Source: a virus
Virus genome (UHGV): UHGV-1465484
Strand: one strand, 5' to 3'
DNA length: 24,080 nt
Within the stretch, counting starts at the first letter, position 1, and every line of letters starts with the position of its first letter. Below, piece by piece: positions 980 through 23,615 of the stretch. The notes beneath the pieces are model-generated. The model was not told the origin of the DNA and made no database searches. It saw only the letters and a program-made list of their open reading frames with translations. The translations under genes and the position numbers were made by a program.

Positions 980-4660
<3,681 letters not shown>

Positions 4661-4680
<20 letters not shown>

Positions 4681-5992
4681 TCTCCCGCATATTGCCAGCA
4701 TGGCCTTTAATGAGCCGCTGATGCTTGAACCCGCCTATGCGCGGGTTTTCTTTTGTGCGCTTGCAGGCCAGCTTGGGATCAGCCGCCTGACGGATGCGGT
4801 GTCCGGCGACAGCCTGACTGCCCAGGAGGCACTCGCGACGCTGGCATTATCCGGTGATGATGACGGACCACGACAGGCCCGCAGTTATCAGGTCATGAAC
4901 GGCATCGCCGTGCTGCCGGTGTCCGGCACGCTGGTCAGCCGGACGCGGGCGCTGCAGCCGTACTCGGGGATGACCGGTTACAACGGCATTATCGCCCGTC
5001 TGCAACAGGCTGCCAGCGACCCGATGGTGGACGGCATTCTGCTCGATATGGACACGCCAGGCGGAATGGTGGCGGGGGCATTTGACTGCGCTGACATCAT
5101 CGCCCGTGTGCGTGACATAAAACCGGTATGGGCGCTGGCCAACGACATGAACTGCAGTGCAGGTCAGCTGCTTGCCAGTGCCGCCTCCCGGCGTCTGGTC
5201 ACGCAGACCGCCCGGACAGGCTCCATCGGCGTCATGATGGCTCACAGTAATTACGGTGCTGCCCTGGAGAAACAGGGTGTGGAAATCACGCTGATTTACA
5301 GCGGCAGCCATAAGGTGGATGGCAATCCCTACAGCCATCTTCCGGATGACGTCCGGGAGACACTGCAGTCCCGGATGGACGCAACCCGCCAGATGTTTGC
5401 GCAGAAGGTGTCGGCATATACCGGCCTGTCTGTGCAGGCTGTGCTGGATACCGAGGCTGCAGTGTACAGCGGTCAGGAGGCCATTGATGCCGGACTGGCT
5501 GATGAACTTGTTAACAGCACCGATGCGATCACCGTCATGCGTGATGCACTGGATGCGCGTAAATCCCGTCTCTCAGGAGGGCGAATGACCAAAGAGACTC
5601 AATCAACAACTGTTTCAGCCACTGCTTCGCAGGCTGACGTTACTGACGTGGTGCCAGCGACGGAGGGCGAAAACGCCAGCGCGGCGCAGCCGGACGTGAA
5701 CGCGCAGATCACCGCAGCGGTTGCGGCAGAAAACAGCCGCATTATGGGGATCCTCAACTGTGAGGAGGCTCACGGACGCGAAGAACAGGCGCGCGTTCTG
5801 GCCGAAACCCCCGGAATGACCGTGGAAACGGCCCGCCGCATTCTGGCTGCAGCACCACAGAGTGCACAGGCGCGCAGTGACACTGCGCTGGATCGTCTGA
5901 TGCAGGGTGCACCGGCACCGCTGGCTGCAGGTAACCTGGCATCTGATACCAATAAAGAATTACTTAATACACCTGAAGCTTTACCGGTATAA
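4661..5992 (+). CDS. C: Head maturation protease / scaffold gpC (ClpP/S49-like)
   Basis: GTG at 4661 preceded by GGAGGAG, in frame with the long ORF 4547-5992; overlaps the B 3' end by 20 nt as in lambda; 443 codons versus 439 recalled for lambda, with a slightly different C-terminus. Confidence 0.85.
5375..5992 (+). CDS. Nu3: Scaffolding protein gpNu3, nested in-frame within the 3' part of C
   Basis: Internal ATG at 5375 (MDATRQMFAQKV...) in the C frame, at the position expected from lambda; nested in-frame initiation is established lambda biology. Confidence 0.7.
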   Translation: MDATRQMFAQKVSAYTGLSVQAVLDTEAAVYSGQEAIDAGLADELVNSTDAITVMRDALDARKSRLSGGRMTKETQSTTVSATASQADVTDVVPATEGENASAAQPDVNAQITAAVAAENSRIMGILNCEEAHGREEQARVLAETPGMTVETARRILAAAPQSAQARSDTALDRLMQGAPAPLAAGNLASDTNKELLNTPEALPV

Positions 5993-6001
5993 GAGGCAGT
6001 T

Positions 6002-6334
6002 ATGGCGACAAAAGAAGAGTTTAACCATTACCAGCCGCTGGGTAACAGTGATCCGGCTCATACAGCAATTGCGCCTGGCGGATTGAGTGCGAAAACGCCT
6101 GCAATGACCCCGCTGATGCTGGATGGCACTACCCGTAAGCTGGTTGTGTGGGATGGCACCACCGACGGTGCAGCCGTTGGCATTCTGGCGGTTGCTGCTG
6201 ACCAGACCAGCACCACACTGACGTTCTACAAGTCCGGCTCGTTCCGTTATGAGGATGTGCTCTGGCCGGAGGCTGCCAGCGACGAGACTAAAAAACGGAC
6301 CGCGTTTGCCGGAACGGCAATCAGCATCGTTTAA
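6002..6334 (+). CDS. D: Capsid decoration protein gpD
   Basis: 110-aa ORF ([22 protein letters not shown]...), lambda gpD length and sequence from memory. Confidence 0.95.
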
Positions 6335-6351
6335 TCTTCCCCTTCATCAAC

Positions 6352-6378
6352 AAAGGCCGCCTGTGCGGCTTTTTTTAT
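6352..6378 (+). terminator. GC-rich hairpin followed by a T-run between D and E (possible partial terminator/attenuator or mRNA stability element)
   Basis: AAAGGCCGC-CTGT-GCGGCTTTTTTT read at 6352-6378, immediately after the D stop and before the E start codon. Confidence 0.35.
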
Positions 6379-6389
6379 GGAAATAATTT

Positions 6390-7415
6390 ATGTCTGTATA
6401 TACAACTGCAGAATTACTGGCATCGACCCAGCATCACTTTAAGTTCGATCCGCTGTTTCTGCGCCTGTTTTTCCGTGAAACCTATCCTTTCACCACGGAA
6501 AAAGTCTATCTCTCACAAATTCCGGGACTGGTAAACATGGCGCTGTACGTTTCGCCGATTGTTTCCGGTGAGGTTATCCGATCCCGTGGCGGCTCCACCT
6601 CTGAATTTACGCCGGGTTATGTCAAACCCAAGCATGAGGTGAATCCGCAGATGACCCTGCGTCGCCTGCCGGATGAAGATCCGCAGAACCTGGCTGACCC
6701 GGCTTACCGTCGTCGCCGTATTATTCGGCAGAATATGCTGGATGAAAATCTGGCGATTGCCCAGGTCGAAGAGATGCAGGCAGTTTCTGCCGTGCTTAAG
6801 GGCAAATACACCATGACCGGTGAAGCCTTCGATCCGGTTGAGGTGGATATGGGCCGCAGTGCGGCGAATAACATCACGCAGTCCGGCGGCACGGAGTGGA
6901 GCAAGCGTGACAAGTCCACGTATGACCCGACCGACGATATCGAAGCCTACGCGCTGAACGCCAGCGGTGTGGTGAATATCATCGTGTTTGATCCGAAAGG
7001 CTGGGCGCTGTTCCGTTCCTTCAAGGCCGTCAGGGAGAAGCTGGATACCCGTCGCGGCTCTCATTCCGAGCTGGAGACAGCGGTAAAAGACCTGGGCAAA
7101 GCGGTGTCTTATAAGGGAATGTATGGCGATGTGGCCATCGTCGTGTATTCCGGACAGTACGTGGAAAACGGCGTCAAAAAGAACTTCCTGCCGGACAACA
7201 CGATGGTGCTGGGGAACACTCAGGCACGCGGTCTGCGCACCTATGGTTGCATTCAGGATGCGGACGCACAGCGCGAAGGCATTAACGCCTCTGCCCGTTA
7301 CCCGAAAAACTGGGTGACCACCGGCGACCCGGCGCGTGAGTTCACCATGATTCAGTCAGCACCGCTGATGCTGCTGGCTGACCCTGATGAGTTCGTGTCT
7401 GTACAACTGGCGTAA
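6390..7415 (+). CDS. E: Major capsid protein gpE (HK97 fold)
   Basis: 341-aa ORF, lambda gpE length and position. Confidence 0.95.
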   Translation: MSVYTTAELLASTQHHFKFDPLFLRLFFRETYPFTTEKVYLSQIPGLVNMALYVSPIVSGEVIRSRGGSTSEFTPGYVKPKHEVNPQMTLRRLPDEDPQNLADPAYRRRRIIRQNMLDENLAIAQVEEMQAVSAVLKGKYTMTGEAFDPVEVDMGRSAANNITQSGGTEWSKRDKSTYDPTDDIEAYALNASGVVNIIVFDPKGWALFRSFKAVREKLDTRRGSHSELETAVKDLGKAVSYKGMYGDVAIVVYSGQYVENGVKKNFLPDNTMVLGNTQARGLRTYGCIQDADAQREGINASARYPKNWVTTGDPAREFTMIQSAPLMLLADPDEFVSVQLA

Positions 7416-19224: not shown

Positions 19225-19250
19225 GGGCGCCAGAAATGGCGCCTTTTTTA
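19225..19250 (+). terminator. Rho-independent terminator-like hairpin after J
   Basis: GGGCGCC-AGAAAT-GGCGCC followed by TTTTTT at 19225-19250. Confidence 0.6.
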
Positions 19251-19873: not shown

Positions 19874-19900
19874 TTAGCCAGGTAACACAGTGTTATGACA

Positions 19901-19926
19901 GCCCGCCGGTTCAGGCGGGCTTTTTT
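19901..19926 (+). terminator. Rho-independent terminator after lom
   Basis: GCCCGCC-GGTTCA-GGCGGGC followed by TTTTTT at 19901-19926. Confidence 0.7.
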
Positions 19927-19931
19927 GTGGA

Positions 19932-22322
19932 GTGGATAGGGCAGCAGTAAAAATCTCAGGTGTGCGGAAAGATGGTGCGGGAGAACCAATACAGAACTGC
20001 ACTATTCAACTGAAGGCAAAGCGTAACAGCACCACGGTACTGGTGAACACGGTGGCCTCTGAAAATCCTGATGAAGCCGGGCGTTACAGCATGGATGTTG
20101 AGTATGGCCAGTACAGCGTCACCCTGCTGGTTGAAGGTTTTCCGCCTTCACATGCCGGGACCATTACCGTCTATGAAGGCTCCAGACCAGGTACGCTGAA
20201 TGATTTTCTCGGTGCCATGACGGAAGATGATGTCATGCCGGAGGCATTGCGTCGTTTTGAACTGATGGTGGAAGAAGTGGCACGCAACGCCGAAGCCGCC
20301 TCTCAGAGCGCAGCGGCGGCAAAGAAATCCGAAACTGCAGCGGCATCATCAAAGAACGCGGCGAAAACCTCAGAAACGAATGCAGCTAATAGTGCACAGG
20401 CGGCAGCGACCTCAAAGACTGCATCGGCAAACTCCGCGACAGCAGCCAAAAAATCAGAAACCAACGCGAAAAATAGCGAGACAGCCGCAAAGACGAGCGA
20501 AACCAACGCAAAGTCCAGCCAGACGGCAGCGAAAACCAGCGAAACGAATGCCAAAGCCAGTGAAACTGCGGCAAAAAACAGCCAGGTTGCAGCAGCCCAA
20601 AGCGAGAGCGCGGCAGCCGGTTCTGCGACTTCAGCAGCTGGATCAGCAACTGCTGCGGCTAACAGCCAGAAAGCTGCGAAGACGAGTGAAACTAACGCAA
20701 AGTCCAGCCAGACGGCAGCGAAGACCAGCGAAACGAATGCCAAAACCAGCGAAACTGCGGCGAAAAACAGTCAGGATGCAGCAGCCCAAAGCGAGAGTGC
20801 TGCAGCTGGTTCTGCAAGCGCGGCGGCTGCTTCTGCCATTGCATCAGCCAACAGTCAAAAAGCTGCAAAAACCAGTGAAACCAACGCAAAGGCGAGCGAG
20901 ACTGCGGCTGCTAACTCGGCGAAAGCATCAGCTGCAAGCCAGACGGCTGCAAAAGCAAGTGAAGACGCAGCCAGGGAGTACGCAAGCCAGGCAGCAGAGC
21001 CGTATAAATATGTCTTACAGCCGCTTCCTGATGTGTGGATACCGTTTAACGATTCACTGGATATGATTACGGGCTTTTCGCCATCATATAAAAAGATTGT
21101 TATTGGTGATGATGAAATAACAATGCCTGGCGACAAGATTGTAAAGTTTAAACGCGCATCAAAAGCAACTTACATTAATAAATCTGGTGTGCTGACAGAG
21201 GCTGCAATCGATGAACCTCGCTTTGAAAAGTATGGATTGCTGATTGAAGGGCAGCGTACAAACCTGTTAATAAACAGCACAAATCCATCAAAATGGAACA
21301 AGTCATCAAATATGATTTTAAATACATCAGGTGTAGATGATTTTGGTTTCCAGTACGCAAAATTCACATTAAAACCAGAAATGGTGGGGCAAACCTCAGC
21401 CATTTCTATTGTCACAGTATCTGGAAGCAAAGGATATGATGTTACCGGCGATGAAAAGTATGTAACTATCTCATGCAGGGTACAAAGTGGGACTCCAAAT
21501 TTAAGATGTCGATTACGATTTGAAGAATATGATGGATCTACCTACAAATTCCTGGGTGATGCTTACTTAAATATGACAGATTTATCGATTGATAAAACTG
21601 GCGGCGCTGCAAGTCGTATTACTGCAAGGGCTGTTAAAAATGAAGCAAGCAAATGGATTTTCTTTGAGGCAACAATTAAGGCACTTGATACAGAAAATAT
21701 GATCGGTGCGATGGTGCAATATGCACCACCAAAAGGGGGAAGCACTGGTGCAGATGATTATATTTATGTTGCAACTCCTCAGGTCGAAGGCGGTTCGTGC
21801 GCTTCTTCGTTTATTATTACTGAGGCAACGCCAGTCACAAGAGCCAGTGATATGGTGAATATACCAACAAATAACAATATCGGTACACCACCTTTAACAT
21901 TTCTAGCTGAAGTTCATACAAACTGGAACGAAACGCCAAATGCAGCACCACGAATTTTTGATACCAGTGGTGGGAGCACAACTCCGGGTCAATATATAAG
22001 TGTTGCTATTAGTTCAACATTATTTCCTGGTGTTACGATGCACAATAAAAACGGTAGTACAGTAGCCGCCGTATCGCCAGTATTATTTGAACAAAAATCT
22101 GTTCTTGGATTTGTTTTAAATGAATCTGGTAATGTGCATTTCGTTAGCAATGCCCAGCATGGGACTCCTAAAACCACGGATCATGTCGGTGTTAAATCTG
22201 GTTATTTCTTCAGGATTGGGGGACAGACTAATAGCGGTCTACGTCATCTTTTCGGTCACATTCGTAATTTTCGTATATGGCATAAAGAATTAACCGATGC
22301 ACAAATGGGAGAGGTAATATAA
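19932..22322 (+). CDS. stf: Side tail fibre protein: lambda-Stf-like N-terminus and Ala/Ser/Thr heptad shaft fused to a non-lambda C-terminal tip with a LamG/ConA-like lectin signature
   Basis: 796-aa ORF; first start in frame is GTG at 19932 (exact start uncertain); residues ~5-120 resemble lambda Stf from memory; residues ~120-335 are KTSETNA-type heptad repeats; the remainder is AT-rich and ends in ...HIRNFRIWHKELTDAQMGEVI. Confidence 0.85.
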   Translation: MDRAAVKISGVRKDGAGEPIQNCTIQLKAKRNSTTVLVNTVASENPDEAGRYSMDVEYGQYSVTLLVEGFPPSHAGTITVYEGSRPGTLNDFLGAMTEDDVMPEALRRFELMVEEVARNAEAASQSAAAAKKSETAAASSKNAAKTSETNAANSAQAAATSKTASANSATAAKKSETNAKNSETAAKTSETNAKSSQTAAKTSETNAKASETAAKNSQVAAAQSESAAAGSATSAAGSATAAANSQKAAKTSETNAKSSQTAAKTSETNAKTSETAAKNSQDAAAQSESAAAGSASAAAASAIASANSQKAAKTSETNAKASETAAANSAKASAASQTAAKASEDAAREYASQAAEPYKYVLQPLPDVWIPFNDSLDMITGFSPSYKKIVIGDDEITMPGDKIVKFKRASKATYINKSGVLTEAAIDEPRFEKYGLLIEGQRTNLLINSTNPSKWNKSSNMILNTSGVDDFGFQYAKFTLKPEMVGQTSAISIVTVSGSKGYDVTGDEKYVTISCRVQSGTPNLRCRLRFEEYDGSTYKFLGDAYLNMTDLSIDKTGGAASRITARAVKNEASKWIFFEATIKALDTENMIGAMVQYAPPKGGSTGADDYIYVATPQVEGGSCASSFIITEATPVTRASDMVNIPTNNNIGTPPLTFLAEVHTNWNETPNAAPRIFDTSGGSTTPGQYISVAISSTLFPGVTMHNKNGSTVAAVSPVLFEQKSVLGFVLNESGNVHFVSNAQHGTPKTTDHVGVKSGYFFRIGGQTNSGLRHLFGHIRNFRIWHKELTDAQMGEVI
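20290..20980 (+). repeat. Internal coding repeat region of stf: 21-nt (7-aa) heptad units, including two ~140-bp direct copies (20487-20626 and 20676-20815) spaced 189 bp apart
   Basis: The two copies were aligned by eye and are about 90% identical; at protein level AAKTSETNAKSSQTAAKTSETNAK(A/T)SETAAKNSQ(V/D)AAAQSESAAAGSA occurs twice. Confidence 0.8.
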
Positions 22323-22603
22323 TGCGAGACTTAATTATCAAATTCACAGACAAGGCCGACTTTTCGGCCTTTATGGATAGCATTGGTTATGACGATGACG
22401 AGGTGATGCAGAACAATGTTCTCATTGATGTGATAGGTAACGTGTACAAAGAAACCGGGGAAATTACTGAAGATGGCGAGCCGGTATGTGTTAAGGAAGA
22501 CGGATATTTTGTAAACGTGCGCATCATTAATGATGTGAAAACACCGTCAATATTCGATGAATACGCGGTTGTTGTTGAGCATCAACTTCGTGGCTGGATG
22601 TGA
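22322..22603 (+). CDS. Hypothetical acidic 93-aa protein, translationally coupled to stf
   Basis: ATG at 22322 overlaps the stf stop (TAATG); open frame of 93 codons in the same operon orientation; no family recognised. Confidence 0.6.
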   Translation: MRDLIIKFTDKADFSAFMDSIGYDDDEVMQNNVLIDVIGNVYKETGEITEDGEPVCVKEDGYFVNVRIINDVKTPSIFDEYAVVVEHQLRGWM

Positions 22604-22612
22604 GGGAGACAA

Positions 22613-23317
22613 ATGGCTACATCGACAGTAATTCCTGGAGATATCACCACGCTAAAGGGAGATGTCAGTAAAACTAAGGAAGATATTTCCTCAATTAACG
22701 GAAAAGTATCAACGCTTCAGATTGATATGACCAGTGCAAAGCAGGATATCAGCACCAGATACACAAAAACTGAAGTTGATAATAAGCTGAAAAACAAAGT
22801 GGAAGCGAACGATCTGGAAAGCGGTCGTTATGGCGGTGATTTTTACCCGCTGACTGGCCGCGAAGCGTTTTATTTATGGGGGTTGGGCACGACTACTGCT
22901 GCGGCAAACCTTTATCTTAATCCTGACCCTGCAATTTCGTCTGTACTGCGGTCCACATCGTCTATCCGCTATAAACATTCAGTAGAGACGATAGATTCAG
23001 AGCACGCCGATGTCATTTTCAGGATGCGCCCTGTGTGGTACAGGTCGCAATGCGAAAATGACAGGCGTGACTGGGGGTTCTACGGATTGATTGCCGAGGA
23101 AGTAGGAGAAATTGCCCCTCAGTTTGTACACTGGCGACCAGCTAACGAAGATGATGCTCCTGAAGCTATTTCCAGCAATGGCCTTGTTGCCGAAGGTGTA
23201 ATGTACGAACGTCTGGTTGTTCCACTGATTCACCATATCCAGAAGCTGACTGAAAGAGTTGATGAACTTGAGTCAGAATTAAAGTTGTTATTAACTTCCC
23301 GAAGCGATATCGGATAA
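22613..23317 (+). CDS. Short fibre-like protein: N-terminal 11-residue-periodicity repeats plus C-terminal peptidase-S74-type intramolecular chaperone domain
   Basis: ATG at 22613 preceded by GAGGGAG; 234 aa; S116-S-I-R-Y-K121 matches the S-x-x-R-x-K Ser/Lys dyad spacing of S74 chaperone domains; GFYGLIAEEVGEIAPQFV ... LVVPLIHHIQKLTERVDELESELKLL is the typical S74 C-terminal pattern. Confidence 0.75.
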   Translation: MATSTVIPGDITTLKGDVSKTKEDISSINGKVSTLQIDMTSAKQDISTRYTKTEVDNKLKNKVEANDLESGRYGGDFYPLTGREAFYLWGLGTTTAAANLYLNPDPAISSVLRSTSSIRYKHSVETIDSEHADVIFRMRPVWYRSQCENDRRDWGFYGLIAEEVGEIAPQFVHWRPANEDDAPEAISSNGLVAEGVMYERLVVPLIHHIQKLTERVDELESELKLLLTSRSDIG

Positions 23318-23327
23318 AGGAGGAATA

Positions 23328-23615
23328 ATGGATATAACACCTTTCCTTCATGCACTTTGTGCTGTGGCTGCGCAGGTACTGGTTGGTCTTTTTACCGGAA
23401 ACTGGGCTTACGGGGCGATAGCCGGTTGTACGTTCTTCATTGCGCGTGAACACACCCAGGCAGAATATCGCTGGATCGAAATGTTCGGGCATGGCAAGCG
23501 AATGAATATGCCGTGGTGGGGCGGTTTTGATCCGCGTGTTTGGGATGTGGCAAGCCTGATAGATTTTGCTGTGCCGGTGGTGGCGTGTCTGCTGGTCTGG
23601 CTGTTGATCCGTTAA
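23328..23615 (+). CDS. Small hydrophobic protein (95 aa), probable membrane protein or lipoprotein; candidate moron
   Basis: Strong SD (AAAGGAGG) 4-5 nt before ATG at 23328; hydrophobic N-terminal segment (residues ~5-33) ending in a lipobox-like I-A-G-C, and a hydrophobic C-terminal segment (ASLIDFAVPVVACLLVWLLI). Confidence 0.7.
   Translation: MDITPFLHALCAVAAQVLVGLFTGNWAYGAIAGCTFFIAREHTQAEYRWIEMFGHGKRMNMPWWGGFDPRVWDVASLIDFAVPVVACLLVWLLIR

Follow-up and report, generated by a model that had tools for sequence, protein, structure and literature searches.

The window analysed here is a stretch of 24,080 nucleotides (nt) from the virus genome UHGV-1465484, whose genes follow the order of a lambda-like late operon (Nu1, A, portal ... 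H, J, lom, stf). At the stf position lie three consecutive genes, which encode a proximal side tail fibre of the Stf type (gene 1, 796 amino acids (aa)), an acidic 93-aa protein (gene 2), and a 234-aa protein (gene 3), and a predicted membrane protein is encoded downstream (Table 1). The start of gene 2 overlaps the fibre stop (ATGA), and gene 3 has an ATG start with a GGGAG ribosome-binding site, 9 nt past the gene 2 stop. Gene 3 is the subject of this study. A first, sequence-only reading had described it as an unusually small protein with an S74 chaperone domain downstream of the tail fibre, and its location is as described, with gene 2 standing between the two. We found that gene 3 belongs to the S74 intramolecular chaperone (IMC) family and to a widespread three-gene fibre cassette. 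With moderate confidence, we favour the reading that it is an exchangeable distal side-fibre subunit in its shortest allelic form, a self-trimerising and self-cleaving stub that would dock on the side fibre.

Table 1. Features of the side-fibre locus in the window
Feature	Position	Strand	Basis
Gene 1, proximal Stf-like side tail fibre, 796 aa	19932..22322	+	PF08400 E=2.5e-65, aa 5-134
Near-invariant fibre junction, aa 361-445, LQPLPDVWIPFNDSLDMITGF...	21012..21266	+	column conservation
Hypervariable fibre part, aa 446-760	21267..22211	+	pairwise identity among loci
Gene 2, 93-aa acidic protein, pI 4.1	22322..22603	+	phrog_1361 E=2e-43
Gene 3, 234 aa, proposed minimal distal-fibre allele with C-terminal IMC	22613..23317	+	open reading frame, Pfam, PHROG, model
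Gene 3 N-terminal adaptor, aa 1-15, MATSTVIPGDITTLK	22613..22657	+	invariant residues across alleles
Gene 3 heptad-repeat coiled coil, aa 9-66	22637..22810	+	lag self-similarity, AlphaFold2 helix
Gene 3 pre-cleavage cap, aa 71-115, ...GLGTTTAAANLYLNPDPAISSVLRST	22823..22957	+	block conserved with fibre C-termini
Predicted autocleavage motif, S116-S-I-R-Y-K121	22958..22975	+	S74 profile positions 1-6
IMC / Peptidase_S74 domain, aa 116-234, 13.8 kDa, predicted released	22958..23314	+	Pfam, Foldseek
Downstream 95-aa predicted membrane protein	23328..23615	+	phrog_1443

The gene 3 protein and its S74 domain

The S74 assignment was borne out by both profile and structure. Residues 116-172 of gene 3 match positions 1-57 of the 58 positions of the Peptidase_S74 profile (PF13884) with E=4.5e-6 and 27.3 bits, compared with a gathering cut-off of 22. 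S116 (nt 22958-22960) and K121 (nt 22973-22975), already proposed as the catalytic dyad by the sequence-only reading, fall on profile positions 1 and 6, and both are invariant in an alignment of 34 sequences that reaches down to 29% identity. In an AlphaFold2 (AF2) monomer model built on that alignment, aa 131-230 have pLDDT values of 73-91 and the C-terminal helix (aa 198-232) has values of 79-91. Foldseek matched aa ~121-232 of this model to the MyRF ICA structure 7dc3 (E=1.7e-5, probability 1.00), and more weakly to 3gud and 3gw6 (E~0.1). A sequence search of the PDB returned the C-terminus of DT57C LtfA (8hqz_d, E=5.7e-8), with the cleavage motifs aligned. The NCBIfam scan assigned gene 3 to no family, and no family of the Tfa/TAP type was present among the Pfam, NCBIfam, and PHROG matches of gene 3 and the 93-aa protein. 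In every respect that can be tested computationally, gene 3 is a member of the S74 IMC family, and the invariant dyad predicts autocatalytic release of the IMC at S116/K121. The S74 domain ends the protein, and its passenger is unusually short, a heptad-periodic sequence of 115 aa with a long predicted helix, in agreement with the mature part of about 115 residues put forward earlier.

The N-terminal part of gene 3 opens with an adaptor of the consensus MxTxTxIPxDIxxLK, in which M1, T3, T5, I7, P8, D10, I11, L14, and K15 are invariant among alleles of 215-510 aa from four phage groups. The repeats that follow had been described as 11-residue units making up the N-terminal part. Instead, self-similarity reaches z=3.1-4.2 at lags of 7, 14, and 21 residues and z=0.0 at lag 11, and this heptad pattern is confined to aa 9-66. 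Alleles differ in repeat number by insertions or deletions of 7, 14, or 21 aa. AF2 places a helix at aa 12-47 (pLDDT 79-88), and the coiled coil weakly matches the P22-like gp26 needle (4lin, E=0.019). As for the region between the coiled coil and the cleavage serine, gene 3 aa ~85-115 lie within a block that phmmer finds in thousands of fibre C-termini, and the motif TTxxxAN...LRSTSS, which spans the ~30 residues that precede the serine, recurs in unrelated small S74 proteins. The wide conservation of these residues argues for aa 71-115 being a generic cap rather than a receptor tip.

An exhaustive phmmer search with gene 3 returned 3,603 cluster representatives at E<=1e-3, and in every target the conserved block (gene 3 aa ~85-226) sits at the very C-terminal end. 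Among the best 150 of these 3,603 representatives, most are 300-1,300 aa long and 17 are under 260 aa. The allele itself is present in 740 of 5,426 complete E. coli genomes, or ~14% (megablast with the allele-specific part, at least 80% coverage), where PGAP labels it a 'tail fiber domain-containing protein'. Thus, gene 3 is unusually small when set against the bulk of S74 proteins, but its own small class is common, and there are other small S74 proteins. The closest long relatives, P0066 (735 aa), P0067 (958 aa), P0072 (1,243 aa), and P0073 (1,025 aa), cover gene 3 from residue 25-50 on. P0066 is a lambdoid Stf encoded directly after J in a lambdoid prophage, and its own C-terminus is 59-60% identical to gene 3 aa 38-224. 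Unlike gene 3, this module shares a single polypeptide with a phage_tail_N anchor and fibre repeats, and P0066 has neither the adaptor, nor a 93-aa gene, nor a separate gene 3, with no small genes following it. Considering that the long relatives share the module as their C-terminus, gene 3 is, on sequence comparison, a fibre-tip-plus-IMC module made separate, with its own start and its own N-terminus. Larger homologs ending in the gene 3 sequence, which the sequence-only reading had suggested looking for, therefore exist but are not evidence of a disrupted open reading frame (ORF); these four are independent single-chain fibres.

Eight metagenomic proteins of 180-245 aa (P0087, P0093, P0094, P0135, P0144, P0167, P0185, and P0196) carry the same pre-cleavage motif followed by an S74 domain, and imply that small S74 proteins exist in other lineages too. 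Their N-termini are beta-rich and without the adaptor, and some of them may be truncated gene calls.

The three-gene cassette and its alleles

In all 84 loci, gene 3 was never found apart from the fibre and small-protein genes. Every locus with the small gene has the same upstream pair, a fibre with a shared C-terminal module of ~435 aa and an acidic protein of ~92 aa, which in loci L083 and L084 is a diverged 89-aa homolog. The cassette thus defined consists of a proximal fibre with a variable C-terminal domain, the ~92-aa acidic protein, and the adaptor-bearing gene 3. This gene order recurs in six phage groups, which besides the lambdoid phages comprise Drexlerviridae, where the locus adjoins primase and SSB genes, Seuratvirus KurtStettler (MZ501091), Tritos and PhiR63_1, Tequintavirus HMD-P4 and IrisVonRoten, and Dhillonvirus 'rolling' (NC_073056, L095), in which gene 3 has no annotation and is cut off where the record ends. 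In the latter, an ORF of at least 278 aa that starts MVTKTNIPADITALQ... and contains the adaptor extends from ~3760 to the end of the linear record, and its annotation was probably missed. The N-termini of the fibres are lineage-specific, and the fibres are alignable from residue ~361 of the window Stf on. A deleted prophage, L040 (IMGVR_UViG_2529292834_000009, 4065-7009), has a terminase small-subunit gene adjoining the last 314 fibre codons, followed by intact genes for proteins of 93, 234, and 97 aa.

A search with gene 3 aa 1-47 alone retrieved third genes of very different length. Across cassettes gene 3 spans 215-574 aa, with alleles of 333 aa in HMD-P4, 346 aa in Tritos and PhiR63_1, 510 aa in KurtStettler, and 574 aa in IrisVonRoten (Gp24). 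The long alleles share the opening M[AV]TxTxIPxDI[TK]xLK, have heptad repeats after it, and contain the S74 domain. What differs is the segment between the coiled coil and the cleavage serine, which is ~45 aa in the window, ~150 aa in the Tritos type, and ~430 aa with two receptor-binding domains (RBDs) in Gp24. Tritos, PhiR63_1, HMD-P4, and KurtStettler (333-510 aa) have the same locus, adaptor, and flanks, with 80-96% nucleotide identity in the flanks of Tritos, but carry a globular insert of ~150 aa before the cleavage serine and an IMC of another S74 sub-family. Between the window and Tritos, the fibre gene, the 93-aa gene, and gene 3 up to codon ~15 are homologous at the nucleotide level; homology is then lost until the gene 3 stop, where it returns. 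The downstream membrane-protein gene is 96% identical (95% at the protein level), whereas no similarity is detectable by BLAST between the two gene 3 proteins beyond the adaptor. Read from the nucleotide sequences, the two loci differ by a clean cassette exchange that leaves the adaptor constant. The Tritos-type allele is present in 470 of the 5,426 E. coli genomes. The KurtStettler allele (MZ501091, L088, 4501-6033) has an extension of ~170 aa, Gly-rich and then Cys-rich, inside or after the IMC and ending in ...PTPPTPPTSCC, which is unusual for S74 proteins.

The best described member of this series is Gp24 of IrisVonRoten (Bas32), a distal 'T-shaped' fibre (Humolli et al. 2025, PMC11990801). 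Its attachment to the proximal fibre Gp22, which itself bears a galectin-like C-terminal domain, was modelled by AlphaFold-Multimer (PMC11990801). The gene order is the same as in the window, with identities of 47% over 774 aa between gene 1 and Gp22 and of 42% over 92 aa between gene 2 and Gp23. Gp24 starts with MVTKTVIPTDITKLK (motif MxTxTVIPxDITxLK) and ends in an S74 IMC, but its 574 aa include a Gp12-like RBD1 and a T5-like RBD2 between adaptor and IMC. Gene 3 of the window has no counterpart of Gp24 aa ~30-440 and no receptor-binding domain, only a coiled coil and the generic cap. In DT57C, LtfB uses a short conserved N-terminus to dock on LtfA, which appears unstable when LtfB is missing (Golomidova 2016, PMC4728585). 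There, too, a second IMC-bearing fibre is attached via a short conserved N-terminus (PMC4728585; Ayala 2023, PMC10713586), whereas LtfB is a full O-antigen-recognising fibre, LtfA has its own IMC, and a 93-aa partner is not described. The IMCs of K1F/NF endosialidase, GA-1 gp12, and T5 pb1 resemble that of gene 3 in profile, Ser/Lys dyad, C-terminal position, and fold (3gw6, 3gud), but their passengers are hundreds of residues long, with a triple beta-helix and receptor tips, compared with 115 residues, mostly coiled coil, in gene 3.

In some relatives the fibre and the small protein occur without gene 3. Phage 21 (OL657228, L094) encodes a homologous fibre (50% identity), a 92-aa protein (52%), and, directly after it, the membrane protein (93%). 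The junction AAGGAGGAA(A)TAATG follows the 92-aa gene in phage 21 (3501-4085) and gene 3 in the window (22590-23340), so that the same Shine-Dalgarno sequence and start come after the 92-aa stop in the one and the gene 3 stop in the other. This identity indicates that gene 3 acts as a clean presence/absence cassette. Adaptor-bearing genes are likewise lacking in rV5-like myoviruses such as JeffSchatz, which have the fibre module and a small-protein homolog of 110 aa. Gene 3 thus appears optional for the folding of a homologous fibre and, from these loci, is not generally needed for it.

The fibre encoded by gene 1 consists of a phage_tail_N anchor, a shaft of Ala/Ser/Thr-rich repeats, and the shared C-terminal module; aa 437-638 are a GTA_spike_fiber domain (NCBIfam), and aa 246-796 are 53% identical to gp81 of phage tunus. 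From residue ~361 on, a near-invariant junction is followed by the variable part (aa 446-760) and then by a conserved tail. Among eight fibres from lambdoid phages, Drexlerviridae, Seuratvirus, Tequintavirus, and Tritos, the column conservation of the junction (aa 361-445) is 0.84-0.91. These 85 residues (LQPLPDVWIPFNDSLDMITGFSPSYKKIVIGDDEITMPGDKIVKFKRAS...) start the portable module, and the fibres concerned are 45-60% identical elsewhere. The junction is a candidate docking or trimer-register element. In contrast, the mean pairwise identity of fibre aa 446-760 is 0.46 (minimum 0.24) among 62 distinct loci, compared with 0.92-0.95 for gene 3, and the IMC averages 0.98 in the lambdoid subset. 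In 80 prophage loci the variable part of the fibre is 37-100% identical to that of the window and gene 3 is 92-100% identical. Host specificity likely lies in the hypervariable fibre aa 446-760, to judge from this pattern.

The 93-aa protein is intermediate in conservation and can diverge strongly along with the fibre tip. For instance, the fibre tip of L084 is 45% identical to that of the window, its 89-aa protein ~29%, and its gene 3 92%. Correlations between segments mostly fall with physical distance, with the exception that the C-terminal half of the 93-aa protein tracks the N-terminus of gene 3 (rho 0.53-0.64) better than its own N-terminal half. In 181 phage records, which range from lambdoid phages to rV5-like myoviruses, a homolog of the 93-aa protein adjoins a fibre that has the shared C-terminal module. 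AF2 gives the protein an alpha/beta fold (pLDDT 81), and fold searches of this model in PDB (best E=0.04) and BFVD found no characterised relative. The protein may belong to a class of fibre chaperones or adaptors that has yet to be described.

The 95-aa membrane protein, a conserved right flank in lambdoid phages, does not occur in the Drexlerviridae loci and is no component of the fibre module of T1-like phages; its copy in phage 21 is annotated with two transmembrane domains, and it may be a moron or exclusion gene. No tRNA or attachment-site features were found near the locus. Terminator-like GC hairpins with T-runs occur on both sides of lom (19225-19244 and 19900-19921), which would mean that expression of stf, the 93-aa gene, and gene 3 needs read-through by antitermination or some promoter, although such sites are no more numerous in the region than in shuffled sequence. 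The shaft repeats of Stf (20300-21070, KTSETNAKSSQTAA...) also read as many long ORFs in the remaining frames, including those of the minus strand, but these ORFs are spurious and are not genes.

Possible roles of the short allele

One suggestion of the sequence-only reading was that gene 3 is what is left of a larger fibre gene, and the long relatives that end in the same ~190 aa (P0066, P0067, and P0072), together with the placement of gene 3 at the end of the 1,385-column profile phrog_3299, could be taken that way. However, each of 79 copies taken from viral contigs and phage records has an intact ORF (229-241 aa), and the dN/dS ratio of nonsynonymous to synonymous substitution rates is 0.15 over 36 distinct alleles of 234 codons. 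The viral-contig scan gave near-identical lambdoid copies only, and was used for linkage and selection rather than for diversity. The ratio is 0.11-0.30 in each of adaptor, coiled coil, cap, and IMC, with 0.11 for the cap, and every region of the mature part (aa 1-115) is under purifying selection. In virulent Drexlerviridae with compact genomes, such as the T1-like phages tunus, SECphi27, and phiE31-2, homologs have kept this size (215-245 aa, 56-60% identity). Moreover, gene 3 has a proper ribosome-binding site and start, its own N-terminus is invariant across phage families, and the DNA upstream is filled by the 93-aa gene, with no 5' fragment there. These observations refute the idea that gene 3 is a pseudogene or decayed 3' piece of a formerly longer fibre gene, which we regard as extremely improbable.

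For the distal subunit that we favour, the following sequence of events can be proposed. Three chains would associate through the C-terminal IMC, as expected from membership of the family, and the IMC would template, from C to N, the beta cap and the heptad coiled coil. S116, assisted by K121, would then cut the chain, and removal of the 13.8-kDa IMC would leave a stub of 3 x 12.4 kDa, if the invariant dyad is active. Through aa 1-15 the stub may dock on the proximal fibre and/or the 93-aa protein, since these are the only components common to all adaptor-bearing phage groups; comparative genomics and the published AlphaFold-Multimer model of a long allele both point to this step. The variable domain of the proximal fibre would bind the receptor, and because the stub has no receptor-binding domain, its role would be structural, in that it caps, extends, or stabilises the fibre. 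The sequence-only reading had listed a minimal accessory fibre docking on Stf among its options, and it is this option that gains from the data: bona fide distal fibres have the same adaptor, and it is right after codon 15 that the swapped part of the allele starts.

Several points weigh against such a stub. The literature searched offers no physical evidence of the aa 1-115 product in virions and no proteomics of a homolog; on small S74 proteins it has nothing specific on virion proteomics or function, and the BASEL papers treat the locus in general terms or deal with the long allele. The BASEL annotation of short alleles is 'putative lateral tail fiber chaperone'. A receptor-less fibre stub is without obvious selective value. 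The AF2 monomer is poor for aa 59-117, with the cap region at low confidence. Comparison of loci with and without gene 3 did not establish the fibre junction as the docking site, the junction being kept in phage 21, which has no gene 3, and partly lost in rV5-like fibres. Finally, the co-variation of the 93-aa C-terminal half with the gene 3 N-terminus is suggestive only and may be mere physical linkage.

The chaperone name used in BASEL fits a different role, that of an assembly factor without function in the virion, whose IMC mini-trimer, by itself or together with the 93-aa protein, would transiently bind the nascent fibre and set its register or stabilise it. The proximal fibre lacks an IMC and is not accompanied by a Tfa-type chaperone gene, the short allele is without a receptor domain, gene 3 is highly conserved while the fibre tip varies, and the instability of DT57C LtfA without LtfB offers a parallel. 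We nevertheless hold this role to be improbable, if by no means negligible. Phage 21 and the rV5-like myoviruses make do with the fibre and small-protein pair, the same adaptor heads alleles with full RBDs that were modelled as virion fibres, and changes in the variable fibre tip are followed more closely by the 93-aa protein than by gene 3 (L084), so that a chaperone role would suit the 93-aa protein better. S74 domains reportedly act in cis, with no complementation in trans. The stand-alone trimerisation or chaperone factor envisaged by the sequence-only reading is disfavoured, both by the pairs lacking gene 3 and by purifying selection on the mature part. A related idea, which we think quite unlikely, is that the IMC-preformed mini-trimer serves as a keystone, its adaptor and coiled coil locking the register of the receptor domain of the proximal fibre, possibly with the 93-aa protein. 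If this were true, the receptor-less allele would persist at high frequency as a trans-acting trimer lock.

An anchor, a trimeric coiled coil, and a C-terminal trimerisation unit could also make an independent short fibre, a stub on the tail tip or baseplate that forms a separate whisker-like appendage, in the manner of T4 fibritin or of the P22 gp26 needle, to which the weak 4lin match points. T4 fibritin (Wac) has an N-terminal anchor, a trimeric coiled coil, and a small C-terminal trimer nucleator, and is accessory to the long fibres rather than a receptor binder. It differs from the gene 3 product in that there is no sequence relationship, its foldon is retained, and it attaches to the neck. 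An appendage of this kind is very unlikely for gene 3, since the adaptor is common to lambda-like, T1-like, T5-like, and Seuratvirus phages with unrelated or distant tails and tail tips, and all that these phages have in common is the C-terminal fibre module and the 93-aa protein, with gene 3 beside the genes for both in all 84 loci.

Meaning for side-fibre biology

The S74 IMC family and the two-part fibre cassette of the Gp22-24 type are known, and gene 3 belongs to both, minus the RBDs; the current understanding of S74 domains is not overturned by it. As far as the literature searched shows, there is no earlier description of the receptor-less minimal allele or its high frequency, of the adaptor of 15 residues, or of where exactly the cassette is bounded. 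For annotation, the rule follows that adaptor-bearing genes are to be named distal fibre subunits instead of 'endosialidase chaperone' or 'hypothetical'. The range of E. coli strains to which lambdoid, T1-like, and T5-like phages can adsorb is determined by their side-fibre loci, which are also what is exchanged in host-range engineering of phages and phagemids. Gene 3 is a ready minimal scaffold for grafting receptor domains, and the cassette provides a clean system for studying the roles of a receptor-less fibre subunit and its widespread 93-aa partner.

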